From: Candidatus Bathyarchaeota archaeon | Lineage (GTDB): Archaea; Thermoproteota; Bathyarchaeia; Bathyarchaeales; Bathycorpusculaceae | Direction: 5' to 3' | Length of the DNA stretch: 64,000 nucleotides | NCBI GenBank assembly: GCA_963827165.1 | Contig: CAWGZR010000012.1 | Span: 64,001 to 128,000, forward strand | Shown: one piece after another, positions 2,674 through 64,000 of the stretch | Position numbering within the stretch: the stretch's first letter is position 1 | Layout of the letters: every line of letters starts with the position of its first letter | Program-made: the position numbers and the translations under genes | The notes under the pieces: generated by a model | What the model was told of the DNA's origin: nothing | Database searches by the model: none | The model's input: only the letters and a program-made list of their open reading frames with translations

Positions 2674-3460
2674 TTGTCAAGGACAAAAACTTCAATTAAA
2701 CCCGAAACAAAAATAATGAAGGCGTTTGTCACAAATACAGAACTAAAACAGTATAAGATGCCTAAAGAAACTGGTCTCAGTTATCGAACAGTTCTAAGAA
2801 CCCTTAAACCCTTGGAAAGTCAAGGCTTCATTAAATTAGTCAGGGTTGAGCCTTCGAAAAAAGGGGGAAAAGAAAGCAAGATTTACGCTTTAACATTAAA
2901 AGGGGTCCTAACTTGCCTAAGCTCATTTTCGCCCGTATTCCCCAGCGATTTTGAAGCGAACGGAATAATTTCATTCCTCGATTGAAAAAGTAAACGAAGT
3001 CATTAAAATCAAAATTAAACCATACAACTTGAAAGATATTACCAACTTCTTAAAAATCTCAGGCACTGACTTAGACTTTCCGATTTTTAAGGAAATAGAT
3101 TGGCTTGAGGCACGTTTTGGCATAGATATTTTTCGAGCATTTATAACTGCCGCAAGAGAAGCTACAGCCAAAGATAAATTGCCTAATGTGGACAGTGTGA
3201 GGAAGATTATGATAAATCATGAAGGTAAGAGTCCTGAGGAAGCTGAAGTAACAATAAAAGAATTCTTAAACATGCAAACCGCATTTTTGCGTGATACTTT
3301 TACTGAGGCTTTCGCTTTCCAGCTTTCATACTTACACAGCAAGGGCGATTTTCACAATGAAAATCTGCATCGCATTTTCGCTAAAGTGGCAACTGAAATT
3401 GAGCAAAGAAATCAAAGCTCCATTGCTCCATTAAGGCATCTGGTTGAAACTCTGAAGTAG
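2674..3460 (+). pseudogene. Winged-helix transcriptional regulator, split by a frameshift near 2980
   Basis: ETGLSYRTVLRTLKPLESQGFI...KIYALTLKG wHTH in 2674..2985, continuing in the 3029..3460 frame; divergent from the replication gene. Confidence 0.65.
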
Positions 3461-18286: not shown

Positions 18287-18805
18287 CTAAGGGAACAGTT
18301 TTCTACCACATTGCTGCCTTTGGATGAAGGCGGCTGTTCGAGTGGTTTTGCACTGCATGTCCCTAACACGCAGAGCTATTTCTGCGAATTCTCTTATGGT
18401 TGAGTGTTGGAAATCATATGATGGGGTTCCGTAACGTAAGCCTGAGCACATTGTGTCACCATAAATGTAGAATCGTAAGCCGCGATAATCGTAGGCTGCT
18501 TGTTTTTCTTCGCCATATTTGGGTTCTGTCATCACTTTGAAGGGCCAAATCTTGCATGCTTCGGGCTTCATATTTTGTAGGTCACAATAGTAGTTGTTAA
18601 CGTCGTTGCAGAGAAAGGCACATGAGCCGTCGCCGAAGCGTTTAATGAAGAAGCGGTTTAAATCTGAACTGGTTGTTTCCACTCCGAAAGTTTTCGTAAG
18701 TCGTAGCCACTCGGGAAAGCTTAAGACTACACTGTAGAGTTTGCAGCAGTAGCCGCATGCTTTGCACTGCCAGTCAGCTATTTTCTGCCATGGAACGAAC
18801 TGCAT
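18287..18805 (-). CDS. YkgJ-family Cys-cluster protein
   Basis: CKACGYCC...CAFL...C...KPEACKIWPF. Confidence 0.85.
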   Translation of the reverse strand: MQFVPWQKIADWQCKACGYCCKLYSVVLSFPEWLRLTKTFGVETTSSDLNRFFIKRFGDGSCAFLCNDVNNYYCDLQNMKPEACKIWPFKVMTEPKYGEEKQAAYDYRGLRFYIYGDTMCSGLRYGTPSYDFQHSTIREFAEIALRVRDMQCKTTRTAAFIQRQQCGRKLFP

Positions 18806-18889
18806 TTCTCAGGGTACACTCACAAAACCGACAAGAATAGGGTGGCTAAAAATGTTTTTCCAACAAGAAATGAGGTTTCCCAAAAAAAT

Positions 18890-19366
18890 TTAGGGTTTTC
18901 GGTAAAGGTAGATGGTGTGTGAAGGGTAGCCGAGCTGAGGGTTTTCGCAGAAGTTCTCAACTTTTTCGGGGTGCCAACCGATGATTTCGTAGTCGTGGGA
19001 TACGACTCGTGCACCTTTTTTGAGGTCGCTGTCAAGTTTGGGCCTAATTTTCTCGTTTGCGCTTGTCGTAAGGTACAGGTAGACTACGTCGGCTTCCGTG
19101 AGGTTAACGTTGAACATGTCGCTATTCACTATGGTTACCCTGTTTTCGAGGCCGTTTTCGTGGATTGACCCCATTGCTTTCTTTGCTAAATCCTCGCGAA
19201 GTTCAATGCCGACGCCGCGGGCGCCGAAGGTTTTTGCTGCCATGATTACGGTTCTGCCATCTCCTGAACCCATGTCAAAAAGTACTTCGCCTGCTTTCAA
19301 ATCAGCGAGCTTGAGCATGTATTCAACCACGGTGCTTGGACTTGGAACAAAGGGTGCGATAAACAT
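18890..19366 (-). CDS. SAM-dependent protein lysine methyltransferase, aKMT-like
   Basis: APFVPSP..VV..ML, DMGSGDGR, VYLYL, RVVSHDY, HTIYLY; GGTGA RBS before ATG 19366. Confidence 0.8.
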   Translation of the reverse strand: MFIAPFVPSPSTVVEYMLKLADLKAGEVLFDMGSGDGRTVIMAAKTFGARGVGIELREDLAKKAMGSIHENGLENRVTIVNSDMFNVNLTEADVVYLYLTTSANEKIRPKLDSDLKKGARVVSHDYEIIGWHPEKVENFCENPQLGYPSHTIYLYRKP

Positions 19367-51698: not shown

Positions 51699-51871
51699 TG
51701 GTGGGGCCGGCCGGATTTGAACCGACGACCTTTACCCAAGAACGGCGCGAAGCCGTTCTTTACGGGTTTCTCTAGACACGCTCCAGAACTTCGTCATTCC
51801 TCTGGGCGAGGTCAGCAAACCCGTTGCTTGCTTCTGGAGCCCGTCGTCATACCTGTCTAGACTACGACCCC
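51699..51871 (-). tRNA. trnW: tRNA-Trp(CCA) with two introns (37/38: 51768-51833; 43/44: 51732-51761) and encoded CCA end
   Basis: GGGGTCG/CGGCCCC acceptor stem, ACGGG-CTCCAG|A-CCCGT anticodon arm, GTCGG-TTCAAAT-CCGGC T arm; 77 nt after removing both introns. Confidence 0.93.
51768..51833 (-). ncRNA. Intron-encoded box C/D-type guide RNA
   Basis: ACGGGTTTG+CTGA (D'), ATGACGA (C'), and TTCTGGAGC antisense to the anticodon loop. Confidence 0.75.
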
Positions 51872-56138: not shown

Positions 56139-56621
56139 GTGAGAAATTTGGGTACAAAACCCAAAAAAACTCCGAAGAAAATGTTGGACTCCGTCGATGA
56201 TCAAATTATACGCGCATTGGAAGACGATTCCCGTCTGAGCCTACGCAAGTTAGCACAAAGAGTCGGTTTAACCCCAAACATTCTGCACAAACACCTTGAA
56301 ACGCTCGAGCATGACGGCATAATCCTTGGATATGTGCCCGTAGTTGACTCAGCAAAAATGGGTTTAGCTCTCACAGCCATAATCATGATCCAGATCGAGG
56401 GAGGACACATCCGAGAAGTAGAAGAAGAAATAGCAAAAGAAACCAATGTCTCCTCCGTATACGACATAACAGGGGAGTACGACGCCGTCGTTTTCGCCAA
56501 GTTCCAAGACAACCCAAGCCTCAACGCTTTTCTAAAAAAACTCCTCGGCGACCGATTCATAAAAAGAACAACAACCCTTGTTGCACTCAACGCCGTTAAA
56601 GAATGCAGCAAAGTGATTTAG
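56139..56621 (+). CDS. Lrp/AsnC regulator
   Basis: LDSVDDQIIRAL..DSR and YDITGEYD. Confidence 0.92.
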   Translation: MRNLGTKPKKTPKKMLDSVDDQIIRALEDDSRLSLRKLAQRVGLTPNILHKHLETLEHDGIILGYVPVVDSAKMGLALTAIIMIQIEGGHIREVEEEIAKETNVSSVYDITGEYDAVVFAKFQDNPSLNAFLKKLLGDRFIKRTTTLVALNAVKECSKVI

Positions 56622-58433: not shown

Positions 58434-58474
58434 TTCATAAAAGTTATGAACAAATATTAACTAAGCTTATATTT
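58434..58474 (+). promoter_or_regulatory. Promoter P1: TTCATAA-N3-TTATGAA box plus TATA
   Basis: Box at 58434-58450; TTATATTT at 58467. Confidence 0.75.
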
Positions 58475-59128: not shown

Positions 59129-60691
59129 TCAGTCTTTTTTCCAGAACATTAGAGTTCCGGATTTGGCAGCCTTCTTAGGCTCGCTCTCGTCCTCATCTTT
59201 GCCTGGGAACGGGAACAAACCGGAAGACTTTGATTTTGAGTTAACCCGGAAATAGATTAACCCTATTGCTAGCCAAATTGCAGTGCCTGCTATAGCAAAG
59301 ATTCCTTCTTGCGCCGAAGCCCCTCCGCCAGCAAAGCTTAGGTACACAATAGTGGCCATCATAACTGCGTTAGCCGCGAATCCTGCGATTGGAATTACTC
59401 TGCGTTTCAATATAGACGCTCTCTCTTTAGTGAAGGCGATCAATGCAACAATGTTTGTTAGTGCATACAGCAGGAAGGTGCCAAAGTTAGACAGCAAAGT
59501 AATGGATGTTAAGTTCGTGATCGTCAGTACTCCGAAAGATCCTATGGCGGCTGCGACAGCGGTCATTACCCAGATTCCAATGGCTGGAGTCGAGTACTTT
59601 GGGTTTAGCTTGCTAAGGTGATAAGGCACTTCAGTATCTCGGCTTATAGCGTAAGTTACTCTAACACCGGTGTTCATGCATGCAAGCGTAGTTCCTAATA
59701 TTGCGGCGGCAACAATGGCGGCTATTATTAACTCGAGTGTGAACCCGTTGCCTCCGAGGAATACGTTCCCAAGGTTTCGAACCATATCTCCGATGGGAGC
59801 GCTTGAAACTGCAGCAGCACCAAATCCTGAGAACACCTTGCCGTTTTGCGTTACTGTATAGCTACTGTTCATCCATGCCTCAGCTCCGAAATATTCGAAC
59901 AGATACGCGAAGGCTCCTTGAATAACCAATGATAAGATGATTGCTTTTGGAACGACCTTGGGGTCTTTGGCTTCTCCGGTATAAGCAGTCGCGGATTCGA
60001 ACCCGACTAGCACTAAGATAGCAATGGTCGCTTGAAATAGCACGAAGCTGATGTCATGAGGTGTAACTATTCCGCCAAGGCTAATGAACGTGAAACTTAC
60101 ATGTTGAGGGTTCGTAAGACGGAACGCCAATGCCATTCCAGTGATGACCACCAGCATCCCGATTTGAACAATGTTCAGAAGAAGGTTCGTTCTTGTTGAT
60201 CCTTGAATCCCGCGATAGGCTATTGCGCCTGTAACAACCGCAAATACGCAAGCAATGGCAATTTCCCCTAAGGGTGAGACGCCGAAACCGAGTACAGATA
60301 GGATCCATGTGAGCAGGATGGACATTGCTGCGACCATGACCCCTGGATAGACCCAGTAATAGAGGTGAGAAATCCACCCGACACCGAACTTTGCGTTTCT
60401 AGCCGAAGTGTTGCTGGCTCCGTTGTCTAGTAAGGCTCTTTGAGCGAAATAGTACGAACTGCCTGGACCGGCGTCGGGGTATCGTCGTGCTAGCCACGAA
60501 TAAGAAGCGGCAGTTAGGAACGCCAAGATTAATGCTATTGTGAGGCCAAAAAATATGTCGTTGGCAGTTGAAGCGCCAGATGGCGAGGTCTGGGCTGCGT
60601 TTATCTGAAAAGTGAGCCATAAGAATGCTCCTGGAGCTATTAAGGCCATGGCGTTTATTGTGATGCCGCCTAGGCCTAGAGTTTTTTGCAA
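59129..60691 (-). CDS. APC-family permease
   Basis: ~12 TM; GFESAT...E.KDP...PKAI, R..YAISRD, TP. Confidence 0.9.
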   Translation of the reverse strand: MQKTLGLGGITINAMALIAPGAFLWLTFQINAAQTSPSGASTANDIFFGLTIALILAFLTAASYSWLARRYPDAGPGSSYYFAQRALLDNGASNTSARNAKFGVGWISHLYYWVYPGVMVAAMSILLTWILSVLGFGVSPLGEIAIACVFAVVTGAIAYRGIQGSTRTNLLLNIVQIGMLVVITGMALAFRLTNPQHVSFTFISLGGIVTPHDISFVLFQATIAILVLVGFESATAYTGEAKDPKVVPKAIILSLVIQGAFAYLFEYFGAEAWMNSSYTVTQNGKVFSGFGAAAVSSAPIGDMVRNLGNVFLGGNGFTLELIIAAIVAAAILGTTLACMNTGVRVTYAISRDTEVPYHLSKLNPKYSTPAIGIWVMTAVAAAIGSFGVLTITNLTSITLLSNFGTFLLYALTNIVALIAFTKERASILKRRVIPIAGFAANAVMMATIVYLSFAGGGASAQEGIFAIAGTAIWLAIGLIYFRVNSKSKSSGLFPFPGKDEDESEPKKAAKSGTLMFWKKD

Positions 60692-60900: not shown

Positions 60901-60941
60901 GAATATAAACTTGGTTAAGATTTGTTCATAATAATTATGAA
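60901..60941 (-). promoter_or_regulatory. Promoter P2: box plus TATA
   Basis: Box at 60925-60941; TTATATTC at 60908-60901. Confidence 0.75.
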
Positions 60942-61246
60942 TAACTGTAAGTATTTTCATTATATTAATAAATTAATGCATAAAAAGTCATTGAAAGATG
61001 TTTCTGTTGAACAAAATAAAGAAATTTCTTGCGGGCAAGGCAAGAGGGCAAAACATTACGGGCTTCCTTTGAGAAAAACCTTCAAACGACCTCAAATTCT
61101 GAAATCCATTGCCTCGCCTCCGATTACACAAACATTTCGAACAGCAATCAAGATTCTCTTTTTTATGCTCCTTCGCAGTCATGTTTTAATATTTTCAATA
61201 AAAAAAGCGCCATTGGCGATATTTATGGGGTGCGAATTTTACGGCA

Positions 61247-61342
61247 TCACTTGATTTTTAGCTGTAACCGAATTTGGTAGCCAATCGTCGCTATTGACCC
61301 CATTATGACACATGTCCAGACTACATCCACTAATCCAAACAT
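61247..61342 (-). CDS. 31 aa single-TM microprotein MFGLVDVVWTCVIMGSIATIGYQIRLQLKIK
   Basis: GGTGG RBS; paralog at 61758. Confidence 0.75.
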   Translation of the reverse strand: MFGLVDVVWTCVIMGSIATIGYQIRLQLKIK

Positions 61343-61392
61343 TTTTCCACCAGATTCCAATTTTATTGAACGATTTCTAAGGAGAAAGCATC

Positions 61393-61433
61393 CTATATAA
61401 ACGTAATTGTGAACCGTTCATAACTTTTATGAA
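61393..61433 (-). promoter_or_regulatory. Promoter P3: box plus TATA
   Basis: Box at 61417-61433; TTATATAG at 61400-61393. Confidence 0.75.
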
Positions 61434-61676
61434 AAATAAAAAAGCTGTGCAATTGGAGAGAATGAAATTAGACGTTTGGCTGTGTAATTTCTATTTGCTT
61501 GGACACTTGGTCCGGTCCAATTCGTTCTCGGTTCGGGCACTTCAATTTTCATCCTCAAAACCCGAAGTGGCCACCTCTCATAAAATAAATGTGCTTTTTA
61601 GTTGTATCAAACAAGCTCACGCCAATTATTTATTTCACACGAATTTTCTTTTGTCATTTTGACGCTTGTCGATGTT

Positions 61677-61717
61677 TTATGAAATGTTATGAACAAATCA
61701 CAACTTTATTTATATTT
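61677..61717 (+). promoter_or_regulatory. Promoter P4: degenerate box plus TATA
   Basis: TTATGAA-ATG-TTATGAACAAAT; TTATATTT at 61710. Confidence 0.7.
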
Positions 61718-61757
61718 AGCTGAGCAGATAACTAACTTACGTAAAAACGGTGAAAAT

Positions 61758-61856
61758 ATGTTTGGACTATTAGATTTAGCTTCAATCGGTTTAATCTTTG
61801 CTTCATTCGCTATTATAATGTACAACATCAGATTAGAGCTCAAAATCAAAGCATAA
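61758..61856 (+). CDS. 32 aa single-TM microprotein MFGLLDLASIGLIFASFAIIMYNIRLELKIKA
   Basis: GGTGA RBS; paralog at 61342. Confidence 0.75.
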   Translation: MFGLLDLASIGLIFASFAIIMYNIRLELKIKA

Positions 61857-61893
61857 TACACGAAATATGTTTTGTGCACTTTAAATCACAAAG

Positions 61894-62091
61894 ATGAGAA
61901 ATATGGAATTCAAAAACATACACGAAGCATTGAAATATATTAATCACCGAGCGAAAGCCTATCCGAGTGAAATAGACTACTATTCATCGGAAGAATACAG
62001 AAAAGTTTATCCTGAACTTTGTCGCGTAAATCGCTTATTGCAAGCTGCTTATAATGTTCGTCATGAAAGTGGCAGCGTGCCCTTGCGCTAA
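61894..62091 (+). CDS. Small hypothetical protein
   Basis: 65 aa ORF following the microprotein. Confidence 0.45.
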   Translation: MRNMEFKNIHEALKYINHRAKAYPSEIDYYSSEEYRKVYPELCRVNRLLQAAYNVRHESGSVPLR

Positions 62092-62381
62092 GATTCTAAA
62101 GCACATGTTTCTAGCCGACGGCTTTAAAGAGAAAGGAGAAATAGTAACATTAAATGCCATACTCTCACTACACTAATCTGGAAGAACCGATAAGCTGGAA
62201 AATGAAACGCATTTTCTCGAAAAGTTTTCTGAAGGACATAATATCAAGAAAAGGCAGCGCCAAGGAATGCGATAAAGCCGTCGCCTCATTCGTCTTGATG
62301 TGCAAAGTCAACCGACCAAAAAATTACTTAAGGATTTAAGAGGATCGCGCATTAGACAATAGTTCGGTTGGCGGAGTATAT

Positions 62382-64000
62382 TTGGAAAAAGCTGCTTCTT
62401 TACAAATTTACGAGGTCTTCGACGATCTAGGGACGTCACCAAATGGTTTGTCAAGCGAAGAGGCAAAAATTCGCCTGACTAAAAACGGCTACAACCAACT
62501 TTCCGAAAAAAAACAATTACCCTTTATTCATAAATTTATTAGAAATCTTCGGGACTTATTCGGCATTTTATTGCTCGTTGCAAGCATATTATCTTACATA
62601 AGCGGCAGCCCGGAACTCGCATTAATCATACTGGCTGTTGTTTTCGTAAACATTTTTGTAAGTTTGTTCCAAGAGTCCCGTGCAGAAAAAGCGATGGCAA
62701 CTCTGAGAAGCTGGATGCCTGAGTTTGCCAAAGTAATTCGAGACGGAGAGCTTAAGAAAATCTCAGTCAGAGAAATCGTTCCCGGAGACATTATATCTCT
62801 TGATGAAGGCGACCGTGTGCCGGCAGACGCACGCTTAATCGAGGCTTTTGACTTGTGGACCAATAATGTCCCCTTGACCGGCGAATCGGAGCCGCAGCCG
62901 CGTGTTGCTGAATCGGTGCAAGTTGTAGAGAAAGCCTACTTGTACGCGCCTAACCTCGTGTTCATGAGCACAAGTGTCGCCAAAGGTCAAGGGAAAGCAA
63001 TTGTTTACTCAACAGGAATGAATACCCAGTTTGGAAAAATCGCTAATTTAACTCAGACAATCCATGAAGAGGAAAGCCCGCTTCAGAAAGAAATCGCTTT
63101 AACAGCAAAGTATGACTTCATAATTGCTATTGGCGTTGGCGCATCATTTTTTGTCGCTAGTTTTCTGTTTCTACACGCAACTTTGGCGACAAGCATTTTC
63201 TTTATGATTGGTGTAATGGTTGCTTGTGTTCCTGAAGGGTTACAAGTCACTGTGTCGAGCGCCTTAGCTATCAACGTTCTAAAGATGGTCAAGCAGAACG
63301 TTTTAGTAAAACGGTTATCAGCCGTCCAAACCTTAGGCAGCGTTACCGTAATCTGCACAGACAAAACAGGCACGATAACAAAAGGCGAAATGACTGTAAA
63401 CAAACTATGGGTTTACAACTACGTTGTGGATGTTTCCGGTTTAGGTTATACGCCTGAAGGAGACTTCACAACAAACGGTCAGCCATTGCAAGAAGGGCAA
63501 ACGGATTCACTAGAGAGGCTCATGGAGATTGCCGCGCTCTGCAACGGTGCAAAGTTGGATCCACCTTCGGATAGAAACAAAAATTGGGGTGTGATAGGTG
63601 ATCCTACCGACGGGGCTTTGCTCGTTGCGGCACTTAAGTCGAATGTGAACGTCCAGGATGCTCTGGACAAGAAACCCATTGTGCATCTTTTGCCGTTCAG
63701 TTTTGAGCGAAAACGAATGAGTACCGTGCATAAATTGAACGGTGATTTCTATATTTATACGAAAGGTGCTCCCCGAAACATCTTAGATATATGCAACAGA
63801 GTGCTTGTGGGCGGCGAAATTAAAGAATTAGACGAAGAAAACATGATGCTTGTTGAATCAAGGATTCGCGAGTTTGCGAATCAAGGCTTGCGAGTCATAG
63901 CTGTAGCGTATAAGGTGATACCCAAAAACCAATACAGCAAAGACGAAGCAGAGGAAGACCTAATTTTTGTCGGCTTAACTGCGATGCGCGATCCTCCCAG
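62382..64000 (+). CDS. P-type (type II-like) cation-transporting ATPase, truncated by the window end
   Basis: TTG start with GGAG RBS; GDRVPADAR, LTGES, VPEGL, ICTDKTGTIT, GDPT, KGAP, MRDPP. Confidence 0.95.
   Translation, partial: MEKAASLQIYEVFDDLGTSPNGLSSEEAKIRLTKNGYNQLSEKKQLPFIHKFIRNLRDLFGILLLVASILSYISGSPELALIILAVVFVNIFVSLFQESRAEKAMATLRSWMPEFAKVIRDGELKKISVREIVPGDIISLDEGDRVPADARLIEAFDLWTNNVPLTGESEPQPRVAESVQVVEKAYLYAPNLVFMSTSVAKGQGKAIVYSTGMNTQFGKIANLTQTIHEEESPLQKEIALTAKYDFIIAIGVGASFFVASFLFLHATLATSIFFMIGVMVACVPEGLQVTVSSALAINVLKMVKQNVLVKRLSAVQTLGSVTVICTDKTGTITKGEMTVNKLWVYNYVVDVSGLGYTPEGDFTTNGQPLQEGQTDSLERLMEIAALCNGAKLDPPSDRNKNWGVIGDPTDGALLVAALKSNVNVQDALDKKPIVHLLPFSFERKRMSTVHKLNGDFYIYTKGAPRNILDICNRVLVGGEIKELDEENMMLVESRIREFANQGLRVIAVAYKVIPKNQYSKDEAEEDLIFVGLTAMRDPP

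Follow-up and report, generated by a model that had tools for sequence, protein, structure and literature searches.

Two divergent micropeptide genes and their surroundings

The stretch of DNA analysed here (64,000 nucleotides, C12:64001-128000; the window) comes from a genome of 3.13 Mb in 14 contigs with ~44% G+C, and carries two short divergent reading frames, copies A and B, whose start codons lie 415 bp apart (Table 1). The positions and peptide sequences that an earlier note had given for these frames were exact, and the two products aligned without gaps, as described there, with 17 of 31 residues identical and 21 of 31 positive (E 7e-11 in a single BLASTP comparison). At the DNA level the likeness extends upstream, where A and B have a common promoter block (TTATGAAC-N3-TCACAA ... 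TTTATAT) and a ribosome site, GGTG(A/G)AAA. Using tblastn, we detected four family copies in the source genome, all on contig C12: A, B, C (C12:131858) and D (C12:147122).

Table 1. Features of the A-B region, in positions of the window
Feature	Position	Strand	Remark
APC-superfamily permease(a) (AA_permease_2)	59129..60691	-	downstream of A, co-oriented
Permease(a) promoter	60903..60941	-	inverted repeat TTCATAA-N3-TTATGAA at 60925-60941, TATA box at 60903-60909
Hairpin and T-rich site beyond A	61045-61027		
Short palindrome and T7 run past A	61200..61218	-	possible archaeal terminator
Micropeptide copy A (subtype 2, 'WTC' core)	61342..61247	-	31 aa and TGA stop
Shine-Dalgarno-like GGTGG of A	61347..61351	-	5 nt ahead of ATG
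TATA box of A (TTTATATA)	61394..61401	-	
Operator-like inverted repeat TTCATAA-N3-TTATGAA of A	61417..61433	-	directly upstream of the TATA box of A
Operator-like direct repeat TTATGAA-N3-TTATGAA of B	61677..61693	+	subtype-1 form of the box
TATA box TTTATAT of B	61709..61715	+	
Shine-Dalgarno GGTGA of B	61749..61753	+	4 nt ahead of ATG
Micropeptide copy B (subtype 1b)	61758..61856	+	32 aa and TAA stop
ORF65, soluble three-helix protein	61894..62091	+	conserved; constant downstream partner of subtype 1b
ORF61, weakly conserved small ORF	62154..62339	+	between ORF65 and ATPase
Type-II P-type ATPase, 926 aa, 5' part	62382..64000	+	extends past the window end

The ATG at 61903 is the probable conserved start of ORF65. 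The small ORF61 showed 37-51% identity to frames in 5 loci of relatives, in some of them at the same position, and the best NCBIfam rows for the P-type ATPase were PMR1/SERCA-type models, all scoring below their cut-offs. A PiT-family gene also lies near the peptide genes in the window. Scans for tRNAs and Rfam families returned nothing in or near the A-B region, the sole Rfam match being a tRNA at 51702-51871. A pattern search for the 16S rRNA 3' end, as an anti-Shine-Dalgarno check, found nothing, and a sigma-70 promoter scan, a model that is not relevant to an archaeon, gave fewer matches than shuffled sequences.

Selection was analysed on 45 distinct coding sequences from relatives. Third codon positions were the most variable (entropy 0.71, 0.45 and 1.12 for positions 1, 2 and 3), and the pooled pN/pS was 0.44 in frame versus 1.38 and 1.06 in the two shifted frames, with a median dN/dS of 0.275; for A against B, pS was 0.78 and pN 0.28. 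All 45 peptides contain one 17-residue window with a mean Kyte-Doolittle hydropathy of at least 1.96. These values bear out the suggestion, made when the pair was first noticed, that the paralogs are under protein-level selection with a core that stays hydrophobic. Start, length and stop are conserved in 37 clusters at 50% identity, and positions -9 to -2 (GGTGAAAA), with the GGTGA ribosome site, are nearly invariant across the 45 family members. Every copy that was read has its own TATA promoter, short leader and ribosome site, a near-perfect Shine-Dalgarno sequence, ahead of a 30-38-codon frame under purifying selection; each is its own small gene.

Contigs from peat metatranscriptomes (three libraries, three studies) match the locus at ≥99% identity. 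These contigs, which are unstranded and may contain carried-over DNA, cover A and its 3' flank (61060-61350 and 61102-61318) and B together with ORF65 and ORF61 (61760-62317). Past A they traverse the palindrome and T7 run, reaching about 61060. The stretches without RNA contig cover (60871-61041, 61384-61725, which is the A-B promoter region, and 62353-62400) are not evidence of silence. A and B are very probably real membrane micropeptide genes.

A lineage-restricted family and its operator-like box

A (subtype 2) and B (subtype 1b) are paralogs within a lineage-restricted family, whose members are single-pass membrane micropeptides of 30-38 aa, present in 1-5 copies per genome. The peptides start with an acidic N-terminal cap (M-F-G-x-x-D), continue with a core of ~17 hydrophobic residues, many of them small, and end in a basic juxtamembrane tail that is itself conserved (Y/I-x-I/L-R-x-E-L-K). 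Conservation is highest at columns D6, S16, R25, E27, L28 and K29. Because the 45 peptides have a mean net charge of -1 on the N-terminal side of the hydrophobic core and of +2 on its C-terminal side, we infer an N-out, C-in orientation.

Three subtypes have both caps in common and differ in the helix core, and in all of them the R-x-E-L-K tail is the most conserved part. Subtype 2 (A) was found 460-800 nt upstream of permease(a) and co-oriented with it in 11 of 11 genomes read, and in 10 of 10 genomes subtype 3 and permease(b) form a convergent pair. Subtype 1a (D, for example) is divergent from a stand-alone RAM-domain gene, RAM-only(3), and lies beside kdpABC in most loci, while subtype 1b (B) is followed 35-50 nt further on the same strand by ORF65. 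As in the window, 1b and 2 also stand back to back in the genomes G072 and G095.

In a pattern scan that took a single genome for each prokaryotic species, 22 loci were recovered, of which 21 belong to MAGs of Candidatus Bathyarchaeia/Bathyarchaeota from peat, bog and soil; the 22nd lies on a 6.5-kb contig that is labelled otherwise, yet was placed in the same genus. With a 20-sequence profile the peptide was detected in 47 of 120 genus genomes (24 of the 73 high-quality ones) and in 2 of 12 genomes of the sister genus. In a 401-genome class sample no match at E<=0.001 was obtained beyond those two genera, and three weak matches had E values of 0.001-0.006. A HMMER search of 1.84 billion protein representatives recovered 37 clusters of 30-69 aa, every one of them clearly this peptide. 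No meaningful match to the peptides came from Pfam or NCBIfam (the best was Ost4, at E 0.026, for 1 of 20 members), and the best scores in an ESM Atlas search were 0.80, which is chance level. The earlier proposal of an undescribed archaeal family is supported: no Pfam or NCBIfam model matches it, and in the class sample it was confined, at E<=0.001, to two genera. Of the four copies in the source genome only D is present as a called protein, without a name, in a 15-billion-protein collection; since the other three are absent from it, gene callers appear to miss the family.

Directly upstream of the TATA box lies the box TTCATAA-N3-TTATGAA, the first half of which is turned in subtype 1 so that a direct repeat results. 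The inverted-repeat form occurs 11 times in the genome versus 0-2 times in 10 shuffles, and a wider promoter pattern 21 times versus 4-9 times. Sites precede glnA, the nifH cluster, a second homocitrate-synthase (HCS) gene, both APC permease genes and a CobQ-like amidotransferase gene. The nif cluster, on contig C4, has the order nifH-radical SAM-nifD-nifK-like-HCS, with NifH scoring 433 bits against a cut-off of 394 and the alpha subunit 595 against 486. In the loci of relatives, box and TATA were found at 9 of 9 permease starts and 2 of 2 glnA starts, and the box was seen at 0 of 25 kdpA and 0 of 3 P-type ATPase starts. The genome also encodes four RAM-only proteins and full-length Lrp/AsnC proteins (window 56139-56621 and C4:~132.9 kb). 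Judged by its gene content, the regulon is probably a nitrogen regulon, which would be run by an Lrp/AsnC-type factor together with the stand-alone RAM proteins whose genes lie around those of the peptides, and the peptides would be made together with it.

Two further ideas on this regulon were given up. The kdp genes had been considered as members on account of a single weak site that this genome has ahead of RAM-only(1), and were dropped in view of the counts in relatives (0/25 kdpA and 1/54 RAM-only(1)-like starts). An absence of Amt, as a reason for finding Kdp in a nitrogen context, was rejected because the genome has two Amt genes.

Permease linkage and possible roles of the peptides

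The tightest link of the peptides is to the APC-type permease, both in co-occurrence and in the tracking of permease paralogs by peptide subtypes. Among the 120 genus genomes, which include kin and are not independent, the permease was present in 45, all of which also carry the peptide; the peptide alone was found in 2 (G009 and G089, 56% and 85% complete) and the permease alone in 0. At the level of genes, a peptide gene is found no further than 1.2 kb from 25 of 50 APC-permease genes, and 28 of 83 peptide copies have a permease within that distance. A single inherited island, counted repeatedly, may account for the co-occurrence, and the tracking of paralogs by subtypes could result from block duplication rather than from interaction.

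We put the probability at roughly 0.45 that the peptides are accessory or regulatory helices of transporters, with the APC permease as the first candidate partner, a reading that draws on genomic linkage. The peptides would be expressed alongside the nitrogen-acquisition genes, and their membrane helix would pack against the co-inherited transporter to tune its stability or activity, as in the bacterial cases of MgtS, MgtR, MgtU, AcrZ and KdpF. The variable core might then confer partner specificity, subtype 2 going with permease(a) and subtype 3 with permease(b), and the common tail might provide a shared cytoplasmic contact. In subtype 1, where B goes with ORF65 and others are divergent from RAM-only(3) next to kdpABC, the scaffold may be the same and the partners different. 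A more far-reaching version, tentative and on the whole doubtful, is that a nitrogen-starvation regulon of the Lrp/RAM type (nif, glnA, APC permeases) includes diversified micropeptides whose cores are matched to transporter paralogs and whose common tail recruits ORF65 or RAM proteins; such a paralog-specific 'micropeptide layer' would be undescribed in any archaeon.

For subtype 1b the constant partner is ORF65 and not the P-type ATPase. ORF65 (62-65 aa, 58 homologous clusters) is strongly conserved and modelled as three helices with a mean pLDDT of 86.7; it matched no Pfam family, and a fold search of the model against the PDB gave nothing at E<=0.001. Each of the 21 matches to ORF65 in the genus immediately follows a peptide gene. 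The 1b module was found between the ribosomal-protein/RNA-polymerase operon and exosome genes in L028, in a like setting in L032 (judged by gene sizes, the Pfam scan having covered L028 only), and beside a CHASE4 histidine kinase and tRNA-modification genes in L033; in L024 no transporter lies nearby. Because of these contexts, at least subtype 1b needs no adjacent transporter. B belongs to a mobile peptide-ORF65 pair that is found in housekeeping contexts too, and in two genomes read, L029 and L034, the copies upstream of the P-type ATPase have decayed.

This pairing lends itself to a different explanation, in which the peptide is a membrane tether whose cytoplasmic tail would hold a soluble partner at the membrane in nitrogen signalling, ORF65 in the case of 1b and RAM-only(3) in that of 1a. 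The invariable position of ORF65, its conservation and confident three-helix model, the divergent pairing of 1a with RAM-only(3) in most loci read and the conservation of the R-x-E-L-K tail across subtypes all fit such a role, and a like logic is described in PMC10714827 for sP36, which brings GlnK1 to AmtB1 in Methanosarcina mazei. However, the tail measures 8-10 residues only, subtypes 2 and 3 lack a soluble neighbour of this kind, and several ORF65 copies are broken while the adjoining peptide is intact. No longer fused form of ORF65, such as a peptide-ORF65 fusion, was found among proteins of 171-2000 aa, which is weak evidence. We regard a tether as rather unlikely.

Type I toxins such as Hok, TisB and Fst are small, hydrophobic, multi-copy, lineage-specific and intergenic, and they usually have occluded leaders. 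The peptides are likewise small hydrophobic membrane peptides with the same multi-copy, lineage-restricted and intergenic distribution, they occupy varied sites including the housekeeping contexts, and decayed copies exist. They might accordingly be imagined as starvation-induced stress peptides that perturb the membrane or the proton motive force, multiplying as a selfish or semi-mobile cassette for which ORF65 or an antisense RNA might serve as antidote; the RNA-library contigs reach 190-290 nt past the stop of A, so that an overlapping transcript is possible. Against this, the ribosome site is strong, exposed and near-invariant behind a short leader, and no conserved antisense gene is visible, since the 3' flanks are not conserved between species across the 45 loci. 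The promoter is moreover the one common to anabolic nitrogen genes, and the peptides accompany one permease family strictly and track its paralogs by subtype. We consider a toxin-like role quite improbable.

The earlier note had proposed regulators of P-type ATPases or transporters, of which the narrowest form is a dedicated KdpF-equivalent subunit of the KdpABC potassium pump. Size and topology do resemble KdpF (30-38 aa here, with a hydrophobic window in 45 of 45, as against a single TM helix of ~25-30 aa). Among the same 120 genomes, KdpA was present in 51, together with the peptide in 45; the peptide alone was found in 2 (G098 and G124) and KdpA alone in 6, and of the 83 peptide copies in the genus 53 are at most 6 kb away from kdpA, arranged in at least two ways. 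The KdpF slot of the source genome also seems empty, because no KdpF-like ORF was found in it, a six-frame whole-genome search with PF09604 gave 0 matches at E<=10 (control genomes were positive in 11 of 14 cases), and only 52 nt separate RAM-only(1) from kdpA. Yet the peptide is never inside the kdp operon ahead of kdpA: it lies beyond kdpC and two RAM genes, or is divergent, or is kilobases away, each copy having its own TATA box and ribosome site and a promoter without kdp context. There are up to five paralogs per genome, A and B are 16 kb from kdp, and in several genomes kdp is broken and the peptide intact. Nor does the peptide accompany kdpABC throughout the lineage, given that the six KdpA-only genomes have none within 8 kb or genome-wide; five of these six carry a kdp lineage that is ~65% identical, in which no small TM ORF was found within 8 kb of kdp, and the sixth has a broken kdpB. 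When 20 family members were compared with Pfam by hmmscan (E<=10), KdpF was not among the matches. A complex prediction for KdpA (13-row alignment) with the peptide (20-row alignment) scored 0.00 in two runs with unfolded controls, and is no evidence either way.

Because three of the five features that mark a KdpF were lacking, the P-type ATPase idea is only partly supported, and a KdpF-equivalent subunit is very unlikely. What stands is the link of the homologs to transporters, which homology search and synteny did reveal for both the APC permease and kdpA, with B lying upstream of the type-II P-type ATPase; what does not stand is specificity for P-type ATPases, in view of the kdp findings, the lack of a box at kdpA and at the ATPase, and the partnership of B with ORF65. 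Finally, that the peptides are regulatory leader ORFs, whose translation controls downstream genes and whose product is functionless, is hardly credible: a degenerate 41-codon relative does overlap the start of a homocitrate-synthase gene behind the same promoter (C12:129395-129517), and B precedes ORF65, ORF61 and the ATPase, but purifying selection acts at the amino-acid level along the whole peptide, hydrophobicity is kept in every member and many copies stand alone before T-rich stretches.

Significance and comparison with known small membrane proteins

Bathyarchaeia abound in peat, and we know of no functionally characterised small protein from these uncultured archaea; a literature search of papers without their supplements found none on small proteins of Bathyarchaeia among the matches listed. 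Few archaeal small proteins are presented as functionally characterised in PMC10714827. The present family offers a concrete and testable case, with coding signatures, a promoter and operator shared with nif, glnA and the permeases, and a one-to-one pattern of subtypes and paralogs. If the peptides tune transporters, micropeptides would be seen to control uptake post-translationally in archaea too, and in the scavenging of nitrogen from nutrient-poor peat, and the operator would offer a first way into the nitrogen regulation of this lineage. If they are toxin-like, they would represent a type I-like system in archaea, where to our knowledge few have been described. On either reading, the family is one that gene callers have missed.

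KdpF, as portrayed in PMC3618439, is a 30-aa peptide that shares a transcript with kdpABC and is believed to stabilise the complex. The peptides described here likewise form a single hydrophobic helix of ~30 aa near kdpABC. Unlike KdpF, they have conserved charged caps, are encoded outside the operon, have paralogs elsewhere and are absent from the second kdp lineage of the genus. Closest in setting is sP36 of Methanosarcina mazei, described in PMC10714827 as a 61-aa protein of the nitrogen response that is first cytoplasmic, then at the membrane, and acts at AmtB1. Both cases concern archaeal small proteins tied to nitrogen availability, and sP36 acts at a membrane transporter, but the peptides of the present family are predicted integral-membrane helices of 30-38 aa that have no sequence likeness to it.

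Sarcolipin and phospholamban are single-helix modulators of transporters. AcrZ, too, is described as a single helix that packs against a large transporter (PMC10710835). The peptides have in common with these three a single TM helix and a face of small residues (S/A/G); there is no homology, and the known targets are an RND pump and SERCA, whereas a target here is suggested by gene neighbourhood.

The enterobacterial MgtS, MgtR and MgtU are portrayed in PMC10710835 as membrane peptides of 28-31 aa that act on the P-type ATPases MgtA and MgtB and on PitA, and one peptide family may, according to the same source, act on several transporter classes. In contrast to them, the present peptides come from an archaeal host and show no sequence relation in Pfam or NCBIfam, there are several paralogs with a promoter each, and in genomic terms they are tied most strongly to an APC permease, not to the ATPase. 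They are alike in being single-pass peptides of ~30 aa made with transporters under nutrient limitation, a limitation that is here suggested by the regulon, and a P-type ATPase and a PiT-family gene both lie near the peptides in the window. The peptides have the size typical of the MgtS/AcrZ class (single-pass, at most 50 aa). As to shared control, judged from promoter sequence alone, the box stands at the peptides and at 9/9 permeases, as against 0/25 kdpA and 0/3 P-type ATPase genes. MgtS, MgtR, MgtU and AcrZ make up a functional class and not a homology family, and it is this class that the peptides would, by their putative role, most resemble in the way they work.

Further small hydrophobic peptides and the micropeptide-type promoter

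A second family of transmembrane peptides (32-37 aa), with the tail A-F-x-Y-Y-x-x-K-Y-R-K/R, was preceded by the same type of promoter as the micropeptides. In two genomes a member lies 3' of a subtype-1 micropeptide, at a distance of ~130 nt (locus L041) or ~340 nt (the source genome, G000). The source genome also carries three copies of a third family, hydrophobic 41-aa ORFs that start with M-L-D-L and share 47-68% identity; the micropeptide-type promoter was seen ahead of two of these (C4 and C11).

One 41-codon ORF on contig C12 has a degenerate likeness to the micropeptides (M-F ... I-R-L-x-x-K), has the same promoter and ribosome site, and overlaps the start codon of a homocitrate synthase gene by ~10 nt. 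This ORF may be a decayed micropeptide copy that now acts as a coupled upstream ORF. Within the window, a complete operator box with TATA is directed into the 58.5-59.1 kb region, in which no ORF exceeds 56 aa. It could be an orphan promoter, or else belong to a small RNA or to a further small gene that has escaped recognition. An Rfam tRNA match in the window (170 nt span, 38.4 bits), for which ARAGORN made no tRNA call, is probably an intron-containing archaeal tRNA.

Coordinates of the features (C, contigs of G000; L, loci in their own numbering)
Feature	Position	Strand
Second-family peptides	G000 C5:54259; C12:132292	+; +
	L041:6225-6326	
Third-family ORFs	C4:136446; C12:133770; C11:168792	-; -; +
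41-codon ORF	C12:129395-129517 (L001:1395-1517)	
Box + TATA	window 58434-58472	+
tRNA match	window 51702-51871	-
Stand-alone RAM genes	L001:13435-13764, 18328-18612, 18715-18996; L002:613-876	
Gene remnants	L001:8386-8655 and 2907-3251	
Nitrogenase-like cluster	C4:~126-132 kb (L079:4235-9948)	-
Its operator box	C4:132083	

Surroundings of kdpABC and gene decay

The potassium pump genes kdpABC are flanked by four genes for stand-alone Lrp/AsnC ligand-binding (RAM) domains, all without a DNA-binding domain, and one such gene always precedes kdpA. Two kdp lineages, ~65% identical, occur within the genus, and in several genomes (e.g. G023, G100, G101, G112, G116 and G130) kdp is disrupted by stops or frameshifts. 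The same island contains short pieces of two other genes, one matching the N-terminus of an H+-pyrophosphatase and one the C-terminus of an asparagine synthase. These remnants suggest that rearrangement and gene decay are frequent in this region.

A nitrogenase-like cluster with the shared operator box

The operator box of the micropeptides was also found ahead of a compact nitrogenase-like cluster. The cluster includes nifH and an alpha subunit, which score above the NCBIfam cut-off and the subfamily cut-off, respectively, together with a beta-like subunit, a radical-SAM NifB-like gene and homocitrate synthase. It points to possible diazotrophy in this peat Bathyarchaeon.
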